Origin: Candidatus Thorarchaeota archaeon
GTDB taxonomy: Archaea > Asgardarchaeota > Thorarchaeia > Thorarchaeales > Thorarchaeaceae
NCBI GenBank assembly: GCA_011364905.1
Contig: RDNZ01000003.1
Coordinates: forward strand, 227 to 64,226
DNA: 64,000 nt
Direction of reading: 5' to 3'
Under the pieces are notes generated by a model. That model ran no database searches and was not told the DNA's origin. It saw nothing but the letters and a program-made list of their open reading frames with translations. Every line of letters starts with the position of its first letter. The first letter of the stretch is position 1. Of this stretch, positions 30,465-36,307 are shown piece after piece. Both the position numbers and the translations under genes were made by a program.

Positions 30465-31835
30465 ATGGTGAAAAAACCAATGGTGTATTACACTGAAGAG
30501 ACCCCAGGGGTTAACAGGCGATTGGTTGCAGGTTACTACCTCTTCCTTTGCCTAATTGGTTTCGCCATTCTCTTAGGACCTACGGGATCTGGAATACCTA
30601 TCACCGTTATTGATGATAGAGTACGTGAGGCGCATGAATCAGCTTATCCGTATCTTGGAAACGGAACCGTTGAAGGATGTGGCGAGTGCCACCCTGACGA
30701 GTACATGTACTGGAATATGACACTCCATACAGGTATTGGTGTTTGGCTAAATGAAACATCACAAACTGTAACAGTGTTCGGTCACCGTGAGCGGACATAC
30801 CTGGAGTTCAACGCCAGCTGTGCTCAATGTCACGCAATTGGCTGGACACCCGAAAGGAATGTCACAGATTGGCCAAACACACACGATGGTTTTGGCACCA
30901 ATTGTTTGACATGTCATAGCACTACATCGCCGTACTTTTCAACCAATGGCACAGTCTGTGAAGGCTGCCACGTTGGACATGAAGGTACTTTCGTTGACAA
31001 TTGGGTAAATTCGGCTCATGCCAACTCACTAACAGATCTCAGAGCTAGCAGCCATGCATCATCATCATGCATGCACTGTATGTCGGGCGAAGGATTCGCA
31101 ACTCAAACAGATGTGGATCTAAACGGAGATTATAACTCGATAAATTGCCCGGCTTGCCACTCTGTCCACTCGCCAGATGTGGTGAATCCAGCCCAGATAC
31201 GCGCTGTCAATTCCACAGAGCTTTGTGGTACATGTCACTCTGGAACTCGCTACCCAATGTACGATGTATTCAGTGAAGGACCACATGCGCTCACAGGAGT
31301 TGTCGAGTGTACGTCCTGTCATGGCTATCAGCAAGGTGCTCACGGAGCTGTAATGAACCACACATTTCTGGTTATACCAGAAGATGCATGTGGTCAGAGC
31401 ATGGATTGCCACGAAGGCCAGGAACAGTGGGCTATGAGCCAACTTGAAGAGATTCAGTCATCATTTGACTCGTTGGTAACTGATTTCACTACCGAGGCAG
31501 ACGCTTTCAGTACAATAGTAATGGACTACAATGCTACAGCTGGTGCAGATTACACCCTTACAAGCTATGTGATGGGCGTAGTTGACGATGCTTCTAGCAC
31601 TGTGAGCTATTATCAGGCTGATCGTTCCTCTGGTATTCATGATCCAACAGGGACATTCAGTGAACTGAATTCAGCATTCAGAGACCTTCTCAATGCTGAG
31701 GCGTACTACTACGAGAATCTCCCCGCCGGTGGTGGTGGTGGATTCCCTGCAAGCACTCTAATCATTGTTGGTGGAGCTGCTGGTGGTATTGTTGTTGGAC
31801 TGCTCCTAGGAGTATTGGTTGGCAGACGTCGATAG
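30465..31835 (+). CDS. Multihaem c-type cytochrome (7 canonical CxxCH plus variant motifs), membrane-anchored, with a NrfA/octahaem-family-like C-terminal helical region
   Basis: Start re-assigned to MVKKPMVYY... with signal anchor LFLCLIGFAILLG; the track start at 30330 adds 45 non-hydrophobic codons. Motifs: CGECH, CAQCH, CLTCH, CEGCH, CPACH, CGTCH, CTSCH, plus CMHCM and CGQSMDCH. The C-terminal SSGIHDPTGTFSEL recalls the GFHxPxE block of NrfA-type enzymes. A Gly-rich stalk, a TM helix and RRR follow. Confidence 0.85.
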   Translation: MVKKPMVYYTEETPGVNRRLVAGYYLFLCLIGFAILLGPTGSGIPITVIDDRVREAHESAYPYLGNGTVEGCGECHPDEYMYWNMTLHTGIGVWLNETSQTVTVFGHRERTYLEFNASCAQCHAIGWTPERNVTDWPNTHDGFGTNCLTCHSTTSPYFSTNGTVCEGCHVGHEGTFVDNWVNSAHANSLTDLRASSHASSSCMHCMSGEGFATQTDVDLNGDYNSINCPACHSVHSPDVVNPAQIRAVNSTELCGTCHSGTRYPMYDVFSEGPHALTGVVECTSCHGYQQGAHGAVMNHTFLVIPEDACGQSMDCHEGQEQWAMSQLEEIQSSFDSLVTDFTTEADAFSTIVMDYNATAGADYTLTSYVMGVVDDASSTVSYYQADRSSGIHDPTGTFSELNSAFRDLLNAEAYYYENLPAGGGGGFPASTLIIVGGAAGGIVVGLLLGVLVGRRR

Positions 31836-31993: not shown

Positions 31994-34171
31994 ATGAGAC
32001 AGAAAATCCTCTTCACCGCAATATTTGCCGTCGTGATGTTGAATGCACTAGCTTCGGGTGCGAACATCACTGTTAGTCCGAAGTATACTGTAAACAGGGT
32101 AGACAATGCCAGAACAACTGTTTTGTCACAGGAACAGGAGTACAACATATCTTCATACAAAAACTACTCGGATGCAACTCTAGCCATAATGATGGCCAAG
32201 CACCTGAACATAACGACTGGTGTGGTTTTCCATTCAGTCACTGGGAATTTGTCGGCATATTCTGTAGAAACCAGTCTATCAACTTATTATTGGGCGATTG
32301 CGGCTCTGTCAAGGGCATACACCGAAACAAACAATCAGACTTACAGCATCGTTATGAGCCGGATTGCCAATAAGATGGTTAGTCTTTTCGAAGACCCTAC
32401 CTATCCCGGCTTTTATGTAAACGAGTTCTCCGATCTTGAGTTGAGGCAGACTAAGAGACCTGGTGTCCAAGCCTATGCCTACTGGGCACTTGAAATTGCA
32501 GAATCAACCAATTCCTCTCTTGATTTCACAGAGGAAAAAGAGAGTGCACTGACGTGCGTAACAGATATGCTCTATGATTCCATTTATGGTGGCTTCTTCT
32601 TCTACACGATGAGAAACGGTTCGTTAACTGTACCATCGACTTTCTCTGAGGTTTACCCTAATGATGGAAAAAGACTGGACCATCTTGCTCTTGCGACAAT
32701 GCTCCTTTATGATGTTGGTCAGTCTACAGGGAACACTACGTTGGTTGAGATGGCTAATCGTTCTATTGGATTCATGCTTCGCTACATGCCGTACTACTAT
32801 AATATGGAATTCGTGGGACTGAAGCTCGCAGTGAGCCGAAGTGGTGGGTCTCTCACAGTAGATGTGGGAGATAGAGTTGCATATTCCGTTGTTACAGACA
32901 TCAATGCTATAGCGATTAGTGCTCTAGTCAAGGGGTATGGAGTAACAGGAAATGCTACCTATTTAGACTCAGCAAACCAAGTCTTTGAAGCATTATTTAC
33001 AAACAACTGGGACGGTGTCAATGGAGGGTGGTTCTCAGAGGTGGTTGATGGTGAACCATATGATCCTCTTGATGATGAAGATGTGAAGTATTACAAATAC
33101 ACAGAGATTCAATTCCAGATGATCATGGCATTGGAAGACTTGTACGAAACCACAGGTTCAATTTATCCCATCAGGATTGCTATTGACACTTTGGAGCTAG
33201 TGCTTTCAAACTTATGGGATTTAGAGGATGAAGGCTTTGTAAGTAACTCCAACCAGGTCTGGGAGGTTTTCGCCGAAGACTGGGAGATTCACTATACGAC
33301 TGTACAAGGACAGGCCTTTATTGGTCTGGAACGCGTTTGGAGCTATGGATTACCAATTGTTAGTCGGGTGAGAGTGACTCCAACAAATCCCCGACCTGAA
33401 GATAACGTCTACATTTCTGCAACAGCGCTTGATGATGATGGAATTGAATCTGTCTATGTAAACTACTCTCTGAGAGTAGGAAGCAACATAACTCATGGTA
33501 TTCTCGCATTGTCCCCGCATCCTACTATTAATGGATTGTACAACAGCTCAATTGGGACTCTACCTGATCAATGCGCGGTGAACTTTGAGGTTGTGGCTAA
33601 CGATACAACAGGTCAAGTTTTCGTAGCCGGAATATACTTCTTCATCGTGCGTGCAGACATCTTTGCTCCCAGCATTGATCTATACGCCATTTACCCCACA
33701 AGTGAGGTACGCGTCGGCGATGATGTTGTTGTGGATATGGTGACAACTGAGTTTCCGCCACATAGCTCTACAAACTCGTGCGAGATTTGGTGGAGAGTGA
33801 ATGCTGGCGCATACACACCAGAGAACATGACCCCAATCGGATTTGATGGCACTAGCATCATCTGGCGATTCGAACTCGGGCAGTTCCAGAAAGATGATAA
33901 AGTTGCATTCTTCTGCCTAGTCACTGATGAATCTGGAAATGTTGGAGAGAGCCGGTTGTTCCTCCTCACTATTCTTGGACCCAAAATCAATCTTACACCA
34001 TTCTCAGCTTTCCAGATAGTGGCTACGATTGGTCTAGTTGCCGCACCTGGAGTTGGCTATGCCTACACAAAGATGCGAAAAGGAGGTTACAAAGAGGCAC
34101 AGCGTGAAGGAAAGAAGGAGGCACGCAAACGGGCAAGACGACGAGGTTCGAGGAGGAGGAGCAGAACTTAG
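31994..34171 (+). CDS. Large exported, probably N-glycosylated protein with a helical-repeat (alpha/alpha-toroid-like) region, Ig-like C-terminal domains, a TM anchor and a basic tail
   Basis: 725 aa. Signal peptide MRQKILFTAIFAVVMLNALASG, many NxS/T sequons, a C-terminal helix IVATIGLVAAPGVGYAY, and a KR-rich tail. No catalytic motif recognised. Confidence 0.6.
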   Translation: MRQKILFTAIFAVVMLNALASGANITVSPKYTVNRVDNARTTVLSQEQEYNISSYKNYSDATLAIMMAKHLNITTGVVFHSVTGNLSAYSVETSLSTYYWAIAALSRAYTETNNQTYSIVMSRIANKMVSLFEDPTYPGFYVNEFSDLELRQTKRPGVQAYAYWALEIAESTNSSLDFTEEKESALTCVTDMLYDSIYGGFFFYTMRNGSLTVPSTFSEVYPNDGKRLDHLALATMLLYDVGQSTGNTTLVEMANRSIGFMLRYMPYYYNMEFVGLKLAVSRSGGSLTVDVGDRVAYSVVTDINAIAISALVKGYGVTGNATYLDSANQVFEALFTNNWDGVNGGWFSEVVDGEPYDPLDDEDVKYYKYTEIQFQMIMALEDLYETTGSIYPIRIAIDTLELVLSNLWDLEDEGFVSNSNQVWEVFAEDWEIHYTTVQGQAFIGLERVWSYGLPIVSRVRVTPTNPRPEDNVYISATALDDDGIESVYVNYSLRVGSNITHGILALSPHPTINGLYNSSIGTLPDQCAVNFEVVANDTTGQVFVAGIYFFIVRADIFAPSIDLYAIYPTSEVRVGDDVVVDMVTTEFPPHSSTNSCEIWWRVNAGAYTPENMTPIGFDGTSIIWRFELGQFQKDDKVAFFCLVTDESGNVGESRLFLLTILGPKINLTPFSAFQIVATIGLVAAPGVGYAYTKMRKGGYKEAQREGKKEARKRARRRGSRRRSRT

Positions 34172-34192: not shown

Positions 34193-36307
34193 ATGGATAT
34201 TGGTACAATTCTTTTAATTGCTGCTGCCGCAGTTGGAGTTTTAGACGCACTCATAATGCTGCTGGGACCAAGAATCAAAGGATACGAAAACTACTCATTT
34301 GTTGCATCGTTAATTGGCTTCTTTGCCAGTACTGCTGCAATTGTTTGGCTAGGTTTTCTGATTTTCACGAATCAGTTTCAGTATGTATATGTAACACAGG
34401 TCACTGAGAGAAGTGCTAGTGTATTGCTCAAGATATCAGGTCTTTGGGCTGGTCAATCAGGTTCTCTGGTTTTTTGGACGTTCTTGTCCTTCACGTTATA
34501 CTTTGGTTTCCGCGCTTTGACCCGTGGGTATGAGGATGACAAACTTGTTTATCGTGCAGCAATAATCATGGTAGCAGAGTCTGTCATTATTGCAGTGAAC
34601 ACTCTTGTTGCTAGACCATTTAGACTGATAGAAGGAACAATTCCGTCTGACGGGTTCGGTCTGAATCCGCTTCTCTCAACTCTTCTGAATGTGATTCATC
34701 CTCCACTCATCTTCATCTCATATGCGCTCATACTTGTACCTTTCTCAGTCAAGTTGGCAGGATTCACTCTCAGTAGTGAAGACCGTAATCAGGATCCAAT
34801 CCCTGTCGTGAATGCGTATGTTCGTTTCATGACAATACTTGCTTGGATTTTGCTCTCTTGTGGCATTGCGATTGGTGGATATTGGGCTTACACGGTTCTT
34901 GGATGGGGCGGCTATTGGGCTTGGGACCCCGTAGAAACAACGTCATTGATTCCATGGTTGCTTATCACACTCTACTATCATGCTAGACCGACGTTGCGCA
35001 AGAATGATGTAATCCGCGACTCGTTCCTTGTGATGGCGTACATCACTGTTCTCTTTGCCACATGGACAACAAGAAGTGGAGTTCTCTCATCAGTTCACGG
35101 ATTTGCCATAAGCCTTGTCAGCTGGACAATGCTAGCAACACTCGTATCCAACTTGATAATTGGTGTAGGACTTGCATTTTACTCTGGCTTTAAAGACATG
35201 ACAGATGATGATCAATTGTCTGGACCTGGATTCTTTGACACCTCTAATGTTCGAACATTCTCCATCAAAGTCGCACTCATCGGGTTGCTGGTTGTCGCGG
35301 CGACCTCAACAATTGGAGTCGCTCTTCCAGCCACTTACAATGTTGGAATAGCGATATTTGATCCCACACATCTTTCGGACAGGATGATTGGAATGGACAC
35401 AGAGTTCTTCAGGATTGGTTTCTATGCCTCATGTGCCTTCCTCATTGCCTCCGCATTCTATTGTATGCGAACGGATTTCCTCACTTATCGGAGACGAGGA
35501 ATCATCTTGATAGTTGTCTTTGGAATTGGGGCAATACTCGCATTCATCACTGCCTTTGGAAATATAATCCTAGAATTTCTTGGAATTGGTTGGCGCTTCG
35601 GACCAATGCCAACTTACTACTGGCCTGCGAATCTCTTGATTCTTCCAGCAGCTGCAGGTATCGTATTTCTAGCAGTTGCATTCGCCCGATTACTAGCTGG
35701 AAAAGAACGGATTGCCAGCACACGTCACATTGGTCGTCTAATGCTTCACCTGGGATTGATCATCTTGCTTCTCGGAGTTTTCATGAGTGAGAATGTTGTC
35801 TACGAATCAAACTCTACTTACCTCACAGCTCAGATGAATGAAGTCGCTCCGAATTTGTATATTCGAGTTGCAGATATCGACTTGCAGTCTTGGGTCGATT
35901 CATCAAACTTCCACATGGTTGTGGAAATTAATGTGGTCAGGAATACGACTCAGGGCTGGCGGGTAATCGGACTGGGTTATACTACTGTCACGGGCGATCC
36001 AAACTGGAATATGATCAGCCATACGGTCTATCTGGACTCAACGGCTTTGAGGGATGTATTCGTAGCTGTGACTGGATTTTCGCAAGGCAGTGAAGGTCTT
36101 CAGGTGACTATTCATACAAAGGTACTGCCACTCATCTCATTCGTCTGGATTGGCGCCGTATTCATGATTCTGGCAATGGTTCCTATGTCTTGGATAGAGG
36201 TGCAATCTCTACTGAAGTCAATGCATGGAAAAGAAACGCATCTCTACGAAGATGATGAAAATGACGAGCATTTTGAAGTATCTAAGGATGTGATTCCAGA
36301 AAACTAA
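34193..36307 (+). CDS. ccmF: Cytochrome c haem lyase / haem-handling protein CcmF
   Basis: 704 aa polytopic protein with the WWD-type motif WGGYWAWDPVETTSLIPWL. Confidence 0.9.
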   Translation: MDIGTILLIAAAAVGVLDALIMLLGPRIKGYENYSFVASLIGFFASTAAIVWLGFLIFTNQFQYVYVTQVTERSASVLLKISGLWAGQSGSLVFWTFLSFTLYFGFRALTRGYEDDKLVYRAAIIMVAESVIIAVNTLVARPFRLIEGTIPSDGFGLNPLLSTLLNVIHPPLIFISYALILVPFSVKLAGFTLSSEDRNQDPIPVVNAYVRFMTILAWILLSCGIAIGGYWAYTVLGWGGYWAWDPVETTSLIPWLLITLYYHARPTLRKNDVIRDSFLVMAYITVLFATWTTRSGVLSSVHGFAISLVSWTMLATLVSNLIIGVGLAFYSGFKDMTDDDQLSGPGFFDTSNVRTFSIKVALIGLLVVAATSTIGVALPATYNVGIAIFDPTHLSDRMIGMDTEFFRIGFYASCAFLIASAFYCMRTDFLTYRRRGIILIVVFGIGAILAFITAFGNIILEFLGIGWRFGPMPTYYWPANLLILPAAAGIVFLAVAFARLLAGKERIASTRHIGRLMLHLGLIILLLGVFMSENVVYESNSTYLTAQMNEVAPNLYIRVADIDLQSWVDSSNFHMVVEINVVRNTTQGWRVIGLGYTTVTGDPNWNMISHTVYLDSTALRDVFVAVTGFSQGSEGLQVTIHTKVLPLISFVWIGAVFMILAMVPMSWIEVQSLLKSMHGKETHLYEDDENDEHFEVSKDVIPEN

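Follow-up and report, generated by a model that had tools for sequence, protein, structure and literature searches.

OcwA of Thermincola potens (PDB 6I5B) and OmhA of Carboxydothermus ferrireducens (PDB 6QVM) are cell-surface terminal reductases of the nona-/undecahaem type. In OcwA, the haems of cytochrome c554 can be superposed on haems 1-4, and haems 1-5 of NrfA on haems 5-9. Its haems 2 and 5 are five-coordinate, each lies under a His-His motif, and both are putative active sites (PMC6703420). OcwA, OmhA, the octahaem sulfite reductase MccA and c554 belong to one clade (clade 3), in which OcwA and OmhA are the sole members keeping both catalytic haems (Soares et al., bioRxiv 10.1101/2022.02.24.481543). 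Here, we describe an OcwA/OmhA-like nonahaem cytochrome encoded in a 64,000-nucleotide stretch of DNA from a Candidatus Thorarchaeota archaeon (contig RDNZ01000003.1, assembly GCA_011364905.1; the whole stretch analysed is called the window below), in which the motif aligned with the catalytic haem of NrfA reads CMHCM instead of CxxCH.

Departures from CxxCH are few, comprising CxxCK in NrfA, CXnCH with n = 3, 4, 11, 15 or 17, A/FxxCH in Euglenozoa and CxCH in anammox, and every one of them has brought to light new haem chemistry and new maturation specificity. The motif of the window protein would be akin to them in marking a covalent haem c site off CxxCH and in raising the question of maturation specificity; however, none of them exchanges His for Met or Gln or has a conserved His at X2, the second residue between the two cysteines. 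In the literature, we found no description of a natural CxxCM or CxHCM haem motif, nor of Asgard archaea with OcwA-type cytochromes, which agrees with the original prediction, a model's reading of the window made from its letters, where CxxCM, if real, was not known to be described. The family itself is known, and its homologs have been deposited, but mis-named; the novelty lies in the motif, in its confinement to catalytic-haem positions and in the X2-His rule set out below. Probably, the protein is an outward-facing OcwA-like nonahaem enzyme with a variant-motif haem at its catalytic site.

Nine haem motifs on an OcwA-like fold

The gene (P0001) and the elements of its product are listed below with their positions in the window, their strand and, in brackets, their basis. 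The haem motifs were all re-derived from the DNA.

30465-31835, + strand: nonahaem c-type cytochrome gene, 456 aa (ORF translation)
30516-30584, +: N-terminal transmembrane (TM) anchor, residues 18-40, with NRR before it (hydropathy)
30678-30971, +: c554-like tetrahaem module, motifs 1-4 (Pfam PF13435, residues 72-152, E = 1e-8; OcwA alignment)
30678-30692, +: haem motif 1, CGECH, residues 72-76
30819-30833, +: haem motif 2, CAQCH, residues 119-123
30903-30917, +: haem motif 3, CLTCH, residues 147-151
30957-30971, +: haem motif 4, CEGCH, residues 165-169
31011-31043, +: SAHANSLTDLR block upstream of motif 5 (aligns with GHATALETLK of OcwA)
31068-31082, +: haem site 5, CMHCM (TGC ATG CAC TGT ATG), residues 202-206, permuted motif C-x-H-C-[M/Q]
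31146-31322, +: region of haem motifs 6-8, equivalents of NrfA haems 2-4 (OcwA alignment)
31146-31160, +: haem motif 6, CPACH, residues 228-232
31224-31238, +: haem motif 7, CGTCH, residues 254-258
31248-31256, +: R262-Y263-P264, predicted distal pocket of haem 5 (aligns with HH380/381-P of OcwA and with Q-H-P of NrfA, which holds the catalytic His)
31308-31322, +: haem motif 8, CTSCH, residues 282-286
31389-31412, +: haem motif 9, CGQSMDCH (CX5CH), residues 309-316, equivalent to NrfA haem 5 and MccA haem 8
31422-31718, +: C-terminal three-helix bundle (Pfam PF02335, residues 261-413, 34.3 bits vs. a cut-off of 24.1; alignments; modelled helices)
31620-31646, +: D386-x-S388-x-G-[F/I]-H392-x-P, an NrfA-type GFHxP block with DRSSGIHDP at 386-394 (alignment)
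31749-31832, +: C-terminal TM anchor, residues 429-453, plus an RRR tail (hydropathy)

The re-derivation bore out the inventory given in the original prediction: the seven CxxCH motifs (C72, C119, C147, C165, C228, C254 and C282), the segment SSCMHCMSGEG between the fourth and fifth of them, preceded by WVNSAHANS, and the Cx5CH spacing of CGQSMDCH after the seventh. CMHCM lies in the peptide SSCMHCMSGEGF. The C-terminal helical region contains YYQADRSSGIHDPTGTFSEL, in which an NrfA/octahaem-like block had been noticed and is indeed present as DRSSGIHDP; the His of this GFHxP-type block, H392, is by alignment a distal haem ligand.

A family profile built from 100 sequences was compared with the PDB sequences, and the matches were OcwA (6i5b, E = 7.3e-24), NrfA (1oah, 4e-13) and OmhA (6qvm, 7.4e-12); 6i5b was also the best match of the single sequence. 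Two Pfam domains scored above cut-off, Cytochrome_C554 at residues 72-152 and Cytochrom_C552 (PF02335, the C-terminal half of NrfA) at residues 261-413. The first AlphaFold2 (AF2) model, made for the full-length protein with 100 close homologs, had a predicted local distance difference test score (pLDDT) of 66.6, was poor across residues 175-311 and gave a Foldseek TM-score of ~0.27. The model of the soluble domain made with 132 diverse homologs reached a pLDDT of 89.8 and a predicted TM-score (pTM) of 0.85, and with it the best Foldseek match was OcwA (E = 1.8e-10, query TM-score (TMq) 0.64); lower down came NrfA (TMq up to 0.47), ONR, MccA (0.42-0.48) and a Kuenenia HAO-like protein, with IhOCC as a weak match. 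The similarity to the NrfA/octahaem superfamily that had been predicted from the C-terminal block thus holds by both profile and fold, but the nearest kin are OcwA and OmhA, not NrfA, ONR, Otr or HAO.

The nine haem-type motifs are colinear with the nine haems of OcwA, in line with the earlier suggestion of an 8- or 9-haem enzyme, and motifs 5-9 align in register (CMHCM/CLKCH, CPACH/CQVCH, CGxCH/CTQCH, CxxCH/CVDCH and CGQ..CH/C-SS-CH). The window protein is an OcwA/OmhA-like nonahaem cytochrome, in which a tetrahaem module akin to c554 is followed by a pentahaem module akin to NrfA and then by a three-helix bundle. With OcwA and OmhA it shares the nine colinear motifs and the domain order; two of its sites correspond to the five-coordinate haems 2 and 5, and its family has the distal [H/R]-H-P over haem 5. 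The alignment makes CAQCH (haem 2) the counterpart of the N-module five-coordinate haem found in OcwA, c554 and MccA (PMC6703420).

In the same alignments, CMHCM sits at the position of OcwA haem 5, i.e., of NrfA catalytic haem 1. A few relatives have an NrfA-style CFSCK or CMTCK in exactly this column, which speaks for the catalytic-site reading of CMHCM proposed in the original prediction; the OcwA-based mapping and these CxxCK homologs together fix the CMHCM column as haem 5. A HMMER alignment to NrfA 1oah had placed CMHCM on NrfA haem 3. We took this for a register slip, given the two additional haem motifs between CMHCM and the equivalent of NrfA haem 4.

OcwA and OmhA also differ from the window protein, with identity of only ~25%. 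At haem 5, these proteins have CLKCH and CLECH, and at haem 9 a canonical CxxCH, whereas the window family has C-x-H-C-[M/Q] and CXnCH. In OcwA, the five-coordinate haems 2 and 5 are His-ligated and each has a distal His-His; the window protein has a canonical CAQCH at site 2 and, at site 5, CMHCM without the proximal His and with a distal R-Y (R/H-H in the family). The distal haem-5 segment across the family is R (70) or H (29) at the first position and H (90) or Y (12) at the second, followed by P, and reads R-Y-P in the window protein. From motif 7 to the HHP segment, OcwA has a long loop that is deleted in the window family. Furthermore, OcwA and OmhA belong to a Gram-positive cell wall, whereas the window protein is archaeal and has two membrane anchors. 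In the SAHANSLTDLR block that aligns with OcwA upstream of site 5, S183, H185, S188, D191 and R193 are invariant or nearly so across the family; judging from the alignment, H185 is a probable distal haem ligand and R193 a candidate active-site or propionate-binding Arg.

A separate observation is an apparent swap of the distal ligand of haem 1. In OcwA, the haem-1 distal His is carried by GPGAxH after motif 3; in OcwA-like relatives, too, this His stands 5-6 residues after motif 3 (segment 30918-30956 in the window). The CxHCM clade is devoid of the GPGAxH His, and a His that lies 15 residues ahead of motif 1 is conserved instead (VREAH57, 30633-30635).

MccA (PDB 4RKM) is alike in its superfamily clade, its N-module active-site haem 2 and its expanded last motif. 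It differs in having no site-5 haem and in binding Cu(I) by two Cys at haem 2, as well as in its lower TMq given above; in the window protein, the site-5 Cys pair is kept, and the last motif is expanded but shorter (CX5CH vs. CX15CH).

In NCBI, many homologs bear the name "ammonia-forming cytochrome c nitrite reductase subunit c552", as was apparent in our word-indexed search, and if these pipeline names are taken at face value the protein would be a genuine ammonia-forming NrfA. The Pfam Cytochrom_C552 match lies above cut-off; the C-terminal pentahaem module, the three-helix bundle, the GFHxP block and a QHPEY-like distal segment align with NrfA structures (PDB 1GU6, 2J7A, 1OAH); and at the equivalent haem NrfA likewise has an atypical residue, Lys, instead of the proximal His. 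Since OcwA slowly reduces nitrite (PMC6703420), the window protein might plausibly act on nitrite or hydroxylamine to some degree. However, NrfA has five haems, a CxxCK motif, a catalytic Tyr/Ca2+ region, a dedicated lyase (NrfEFG or CcsA1) and an NrfH/NrfB partner, whereas the window cytochrome has nine motifs, C-x-H-C-M in place of CxxCK and one CcmF only, with no nrfH-type partner among the nearby genes. The catalytic triad of E. coli NrfA is R106, Y216 and H264, and its Ca2+ site (E215/K261/Q263) lies beside haem 1; the residue numbers are the established ones and those in the titles of PDB entries 2rf7 and 4wjy. The segment with the catalytic Tyr and the Ca2+ ligands is absent from the window protein, where only 3 residues separate CGTCH from RYP, and Tyr263 replaces the catalytic His, which is present in 90 of 113 relatives. 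Moreover, none of the NCBIfam NrfA models matched the cytochrome at E<=1, and OcwA is by far the better match in both sequence and fold. The motif count, the missing CxxCK and Tyr/Ca2+ segment and the stronger OcwA match refute membership in the NrfA family, so that an ammonia-forming NrfA appears very improbable here.

Departures from the canonical histidine

The word-indexed search yielded 134 homologs, nearly all from metagenome-assembled genomes (MAGs) of Thor-, Prometh- and Odinarchaeota; the close set consisted of 113 full-length sequences (40-96% identity). An exhaustive HMMER search of 1.8 billion cluster representatives added distant relatives, and 193 full-length homologs were aligned. 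Within the close set, C202, H204 and C205 are invariant, M203 is found in 112 sequences, and position 206 is Met in 102, Gln in 10 and Leu in one. Conservation in 113 full-length relatives puts CMHCM far beyond chance or sequencing error; a His-to-Met exchange needs three nucleotide changes (CAY to ATG). The long-spacer last motif, which had been singled out along with CMHCM as a feature whose fate in homologs would be telling, is conserved too.

In the 193 homologs, both cysteines are near-invariant at all nine sites (at site 5, both are kept in 191), and the residue after the second one (+1) is His in 188-193 sequences at sites 1, 3, 4, 6, 7, 8 and 9. At site 2, this residue is His in 178 homologs, Met in 11, and Arg, Lys and Phe in one each; at site 5, it is Met in 132, His in 40, Gln in 11, Lys in three, Leu and Val in two each and Arg in one. 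The departures from His are therefore confined to sites 2 and 5, which correspond to the five-coordinate active-site haems of OcwA.

The X2 position clearly varies along with the +1 position. At site 5, X2 is His in 143 of the 153 motifs without a +1 His and in none of the 40 motifs that have one; the respective counts at site 2 are 6/15 and 0/178, and at the remaining seven sites an X2 His occurs once in ~1350 motifs. The alignment points to a strict pattern of one His per motif, placed either at +1 or at X2. The conserved unit is C-x-H-C-[M/Q] rather than the CxxCM that the original prediction had put forward as an atypical catalytic site; the alignment with OcwA haem 5 and NrfA catalytic haem 1 upholds the catalytic position, but the X2 His is better conserved than the Met, which makes Met uncertain as the ligand.

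Many Hod- and Promethearchaeota relatives have CLHCM, CVHCM, CIHCM or CTHCM at site 5, OcwA-like sequences retain CxxCH, and CLHCV, CMPCV, CMPCR, CLKCL, CLKCM and CMKCQ are singletons. A tree computed without the variable motif columns puts the CxHCM clade inside a group of CxxCH relatives. Gln has at least five separate origins in this clade, and in a single reversion (P0124) both positions switched together to give CMYCH. As read from this tree, the CxHCM clade is derived from CxxCH ancestors.

Some Hodarchaeota-type relatives (P0127, P0138, P0144, P0145, P0159, P0141, P0134 and P0148) are without the canonical His at site 2 as well, where CGHCM, CSHCM, CAHCM, CAGCM, CFMCK, CASCR and CYACF are found; all seven electron-transfer haems remain CxxCH. 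A related motif was also observed in giant cytochromes of 1160-1744 aa from metagenomes (P0132, locus L006 338-4174; P0137; P0151), where a ~95-aa unit [CGACH][CAHCM][CIVCH] is repeated up to 9 times. The unit is generally [CxxCH][CAHCM][CxxCH], and in P0151 equivalent repeats carry CAKCH, CAHCM or CAKCM. P0132 adjoins CCG/Fer4/FrhB genes.

The last motif follows a different course. In the 113 relatives, C309, C315 and H316 are invariant, and the spacer is 5 residues in 72 and 4 in 18, while the rest fall within 2-11. Motif 1 also varies, with a spacer of 2 in 43 and of 4 in 57. In the NrfA alignment, S312 occupies the first-Cys position of NrfA haem 5 and C309 lies three residues upstream, and distant relatives have CxxCH, CX4CH or CX5CH at the last haem. 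The offset of S312 and C309, together with the variable spacers in relatives, therefore indicates a loop expansion between the two cysteines of the last haem. The Cx5CH of the original prediction is thus conserved, as one member of a variable CXnCH series. The last haem of MccA is bound by CX15CH, compared with CX4-11CH in the window family, and its equivalence in position follows from what is known of MccA and from the alignment of OcwA haems 6-9 with the MccA haem core (PMC6703420).

Probable haem and candidate iron ligands at site 5

The data establish the family, the fold, the conservation of the motifs, their equivalence in position and the synteny; from these, we infer haem occupancy at site 5, the identity of its ligand, the topology of the protein and its physiological role. 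In the mechanism we propose, seven haems would be held by CxxCH and haem 9 by the expanded CX5CH loop, while haem 5, at the place of the NrfA catalytic haem, would be attached via the two cysteines of C-x-H-C-[M/Q], the canonical proximal His having been lost. Met206, in the canonical proximal position, may serve as a weak, potential-raising axial ligand, for which Gln substitutes in some lineages, and the invariant X2 His204 may supply the histidine needed by the single archaeal-type CcmF during haem attachment; alternatively, His204 may itself be the iron ligand. If the lyase needs the motif His as a transient ligand, this would explain how one CcmF serves both canonical and variant motifs.

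Whether haem is present at all at CMHCM has to be considered first. The protein could be an octahaem wire or enzyme in which Cys202, His204, Cys205 and Met206 make a disulfide or a small metal site, e.g., for Cu. Cys, His, Cys and Met are classic Cu ligands, the Met/Gln/Leu variation is typical of the axial ligands of type-1 Cu, and MccA, being without this haem and having Cys-bound Cu(I), provides a parallel. In addition, haem 5 is a side branch, and the MccA chain works without it (PMC6703420). Engineered CXXCM, along with CXXCK and CXXCR, is given as not matured by the E. coli System I (Ccm) in work cited in PMC4158909, and the window genome has one CcmF. On the other hand, lineages that lost the haem lost the whole motif, as MccA did, whereas here both cysteines are kept throughout the family. 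CxxCH and CxxCK occupy the site-5 column in relatives, and the occurrence of CAKCH, CAHCM and CAKCM on one P0151 repeat scaffold implies the same pocket, of equal size. The R/H-H-P residues of the distal pocket are conserved, and site 2, the other catalytic haem site, shows the same substitution. The helical form of CMHCM in the soluble-domain model, shared with the canonical motifs, also speaks for a haem. Finally, four ligands at helix positions i, i+2, i+3 and i+4 cannot converge on one ion. A haem-free CMHCM therefore seems to us improbable, and retention of the haem is the reading we keep.

As to the ligand of such a haem, His204 at X2 may be the true proximal ligand of the iron, with Cys1-x-His-Cys2 locally non-helical and the +1 Met, Gln, Leu or Val packing on the haem edge. 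In that case, we would be dealing with a CxxCH permuted in position, not with a CxxCM. This would explain the one-His-per-motif rule, which two sites follow independently and which the repeat proteins follow as well. The X2 His is kept in 143/143 motifs with M, Q, L or V at +1, while the +1 residue varies, and the P0124 reversion swaps both positions together. His204 is not needed by any other haem, because the seven conserved non-motif His (H57, H88, H185, H235, H274, H299 and H392) suffice for seven six-coordinate haems; this accounting ruled out His204 as the distal ligand of a neighbouring haem. C-alpha distances would also allow ligation from X2, as position i-1 is as near Cys2 as i+1 and the distance from Cys1 to i+2 is ~5.5 A; a regular helix would not permit it.

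However, in the soluble-domain model CMHCM forms a regular helix (pLDDT >90), as the canonical motifs do, and this points X2 away from the Cys-bound haem. Motifs with Met but without His, CLKCM and CAKCM, exist, and to our knowledge no natural c-type haem has an X2 ligand. The Met206 reading agrees with the helical model, and the M-to-Q changes, each of two nucleotides, have occurred repeatedly and resemble the series of axial ligands (Met/Gln/Leu) in blue copper proteins, as is typical of a weak metal ligand. We give Met206 an even chance of being the ligand and take His204 as a tentative second candidate; some other outcome is rather unlikely.

Several considerations weigh against a haem 5 ligated by Met206 in a terminal reductase. 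The failure of the E. coli System I to mature engineered CXXCM is one, and it is accompanied by the lack in this genome (a MAG 81% complete) of a second dedicated lyase, such as NrfE for CxxCK, as only one CcmF and one CcmC were found. The +1 residue (M/Q/L/V) is less conserved than His204, so that Met may not be an essential ligand, and we know of no precedent for five-coordinate Met-ligated catalytic haems. Cys, His and Met are copper ligands as well. At the distal position of the catalytic His of NrfA, the window protein carries Tyr. AF2 takes no account of cofactors and is biased to canonical motif geometry, and haem attachment at CMHCM is deduced from the sequence and from a cofactor-free model. 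The electron acceptor is a guess from context.

Membrane anchors and predicted topology

Most homologs start with MVYYT..., which corresponds to the second Met of the window cytochrome (nucleotide 30480), and this ATG is likely the true start rather than 30465. A longer ORF from 30330, like the start at 30465, is probably too long. Only two hydrophobic segments, residues ~18-40 and 429-453, are present in the cytochrome. These two terminal segments, with NRR before and RRR after, and nine N-x-S/T sequons suggest that the haem domain faces outward and is tethered at both ends. The NCBIfam models gave no match to a PGF-CTERM/archaeosortase signal at the C-terminus, which we therefore treat as a plain TM anchor.

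In the N-terminal TM segment, Y24, Y25, L26, L28, G32 and F33 are invariant in the family alignment. The C-terminal one (31749-31823) has a GG..GG...G...G pattern, and both helices are unusually conserved. Such conservation suggests specific packing with a membrane partner, or a quinol site or access to it, beyond plain anchoring.

Genomic context and maturation

Three further elements of the window bear on the maturation of the cytochrome:

31994-34171, + strand: exported protein of 725 aa with a C-terminal anchor, of no known family, always located between the cytochrome gene and ccmF (synteny)
34193-36307, +: haem lyase of the CcmF/NrfE family, 704 aa, the only one in the genome
11630-14299, - strand: ccmE (archaeal CPSKY type), ccmC, ccmB and ccmA, the remaining System I genes

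CcmE ends with ...LTSCPSKYE, i.e., it is of the CxxxY and not the HxxxY type, and no CcmH was seen among the annotated neighbours, although no exhaustive search for CcmH was made. By sequence, an archaeal-variant System I (CcmABCEF with a CxxxY CcmE) appears to be present. The window CcmF scored slightly better with the NrfE-subfamily model TIGR03145 (7.7e-51) than with the generic TIGR00353 (4.4e-44), with both scores falling far short of the curated cut-offs. For the 725-aa protein, the only matches were weak ones, to (alpha/alpha)6 epimerase-like proteins, and by analogy with NrfG/CcmI its role could be that of a partner subunit or of a chaperone in maturation. In three distant loci (L003, L004 and L005), at 43-62% identity and with differing flanks, the cytochrome gene is likewise followed by that for the ~725-aa protein and then by ccmF.

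The genome assembly (3.08 Mb) encodes no other ORF with more than two CxxCH motifs, which leaves the cytochrome as its sole multihaem protein. Upstream and divergent, there are FAD-oxidase/CCG-FeS cassettes and an exported monohaem/4-TM protein; downstream of ccmF lie genes for a GGR-type reductase, a prenyl synthase and a UbiA/MenA-type transferase, along with complex-I-like genes. The window is a Thorarchaeota respiratory island.

Homologs of the cytochrome occur in 50 of 400 Asgard genomes, which belong to two GTDB families. Among 28 congeneric genomes, each of those with CcmF having one copy, 13 have both the cytochrome and CcmF and 11 have neither; among the other four, which are discordant, there are two where the cytochrome is a fragment at the end of a contig. 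The module is therefore an accessory one, in which the cytochrome is gained or lost along with its maturation gene. In two congeners, the homolog has a single in-frame stop, one TGA and one TAA (G351:C148:21477-22856 and G350:C221:215-1570; L015 and L017); such stops may reflect pseudogenes, errors of assembly or, in the TGA case, recoding.

Discussion

In this work, we provided evidence that an Asgard archaeon encodes an OcwA-like nonahaem cytochrome with an unusual motif at its catalytic-type haem site 5, and the reading given in the original prediction is supported. On balance, we lean towards C-x-H-C-[M/Q] being a new class of haem c attachment at catalytic positions, shared by Asgard OcwA-like proteins and giant repeat cytochromes, ligated by Met/Gln or by the X2 His, served by a single archaeal CcmF and marking an unrecognised Asgard terminal reductase.

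As the sole multihaem cytochrome, encoded in an island with menaquinone, flavoprotein-FeS and complex-I-like genes, the protein would be the outward-facing terminal reductase of a menaquinone-linked anaerobic chain, with reduction taking place at haem 5 and/or haem 2. Candidate acceptors are nitrite or hydroxylamine, sulfur oxyanions, and extracellular Fe(III) or humics as for OcwA. The OcwA/OmhA type is characterised by extracellular transfer of electrons to Fe(III), electrodes or flavins. OcwA reduces Fe(III), flavins, nitrite and hydroxylamine (PMC6703420). Efficient ammonification of nitrite is unlikely in our case, because the catalytic Tyr/Ca2+ region of NrfA is missing. Since the family fails the defining features of NrfA, the potential for dissimilatory nitrate reduction to ammonium (DNRA) in Asgard MAGs is probably overstated, and automatic NrfA labels could likewise inflate the DNRA potential inferred for sediment metagenomes.

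If our reading is true, the motif represents a new ligation of an active-site haem, in which His is replaced by Met or Gln and a His appears at X2, only at two catalytic-type positions and in more than 140 independent sequences. It also makes a long-standing question of maturation testable, namely how System I recognises its substrates and whether the motif His acts as a transient ligand of the iron. Homologs are found in Hod- and Promethearchaeota too, so that the finding bears on anaerobic respiration with outward-facing reductases in Asgard archaea, which would have in this cytochrome a previously unrecognised terminal reductase, mis-annotated as NrfA at present.

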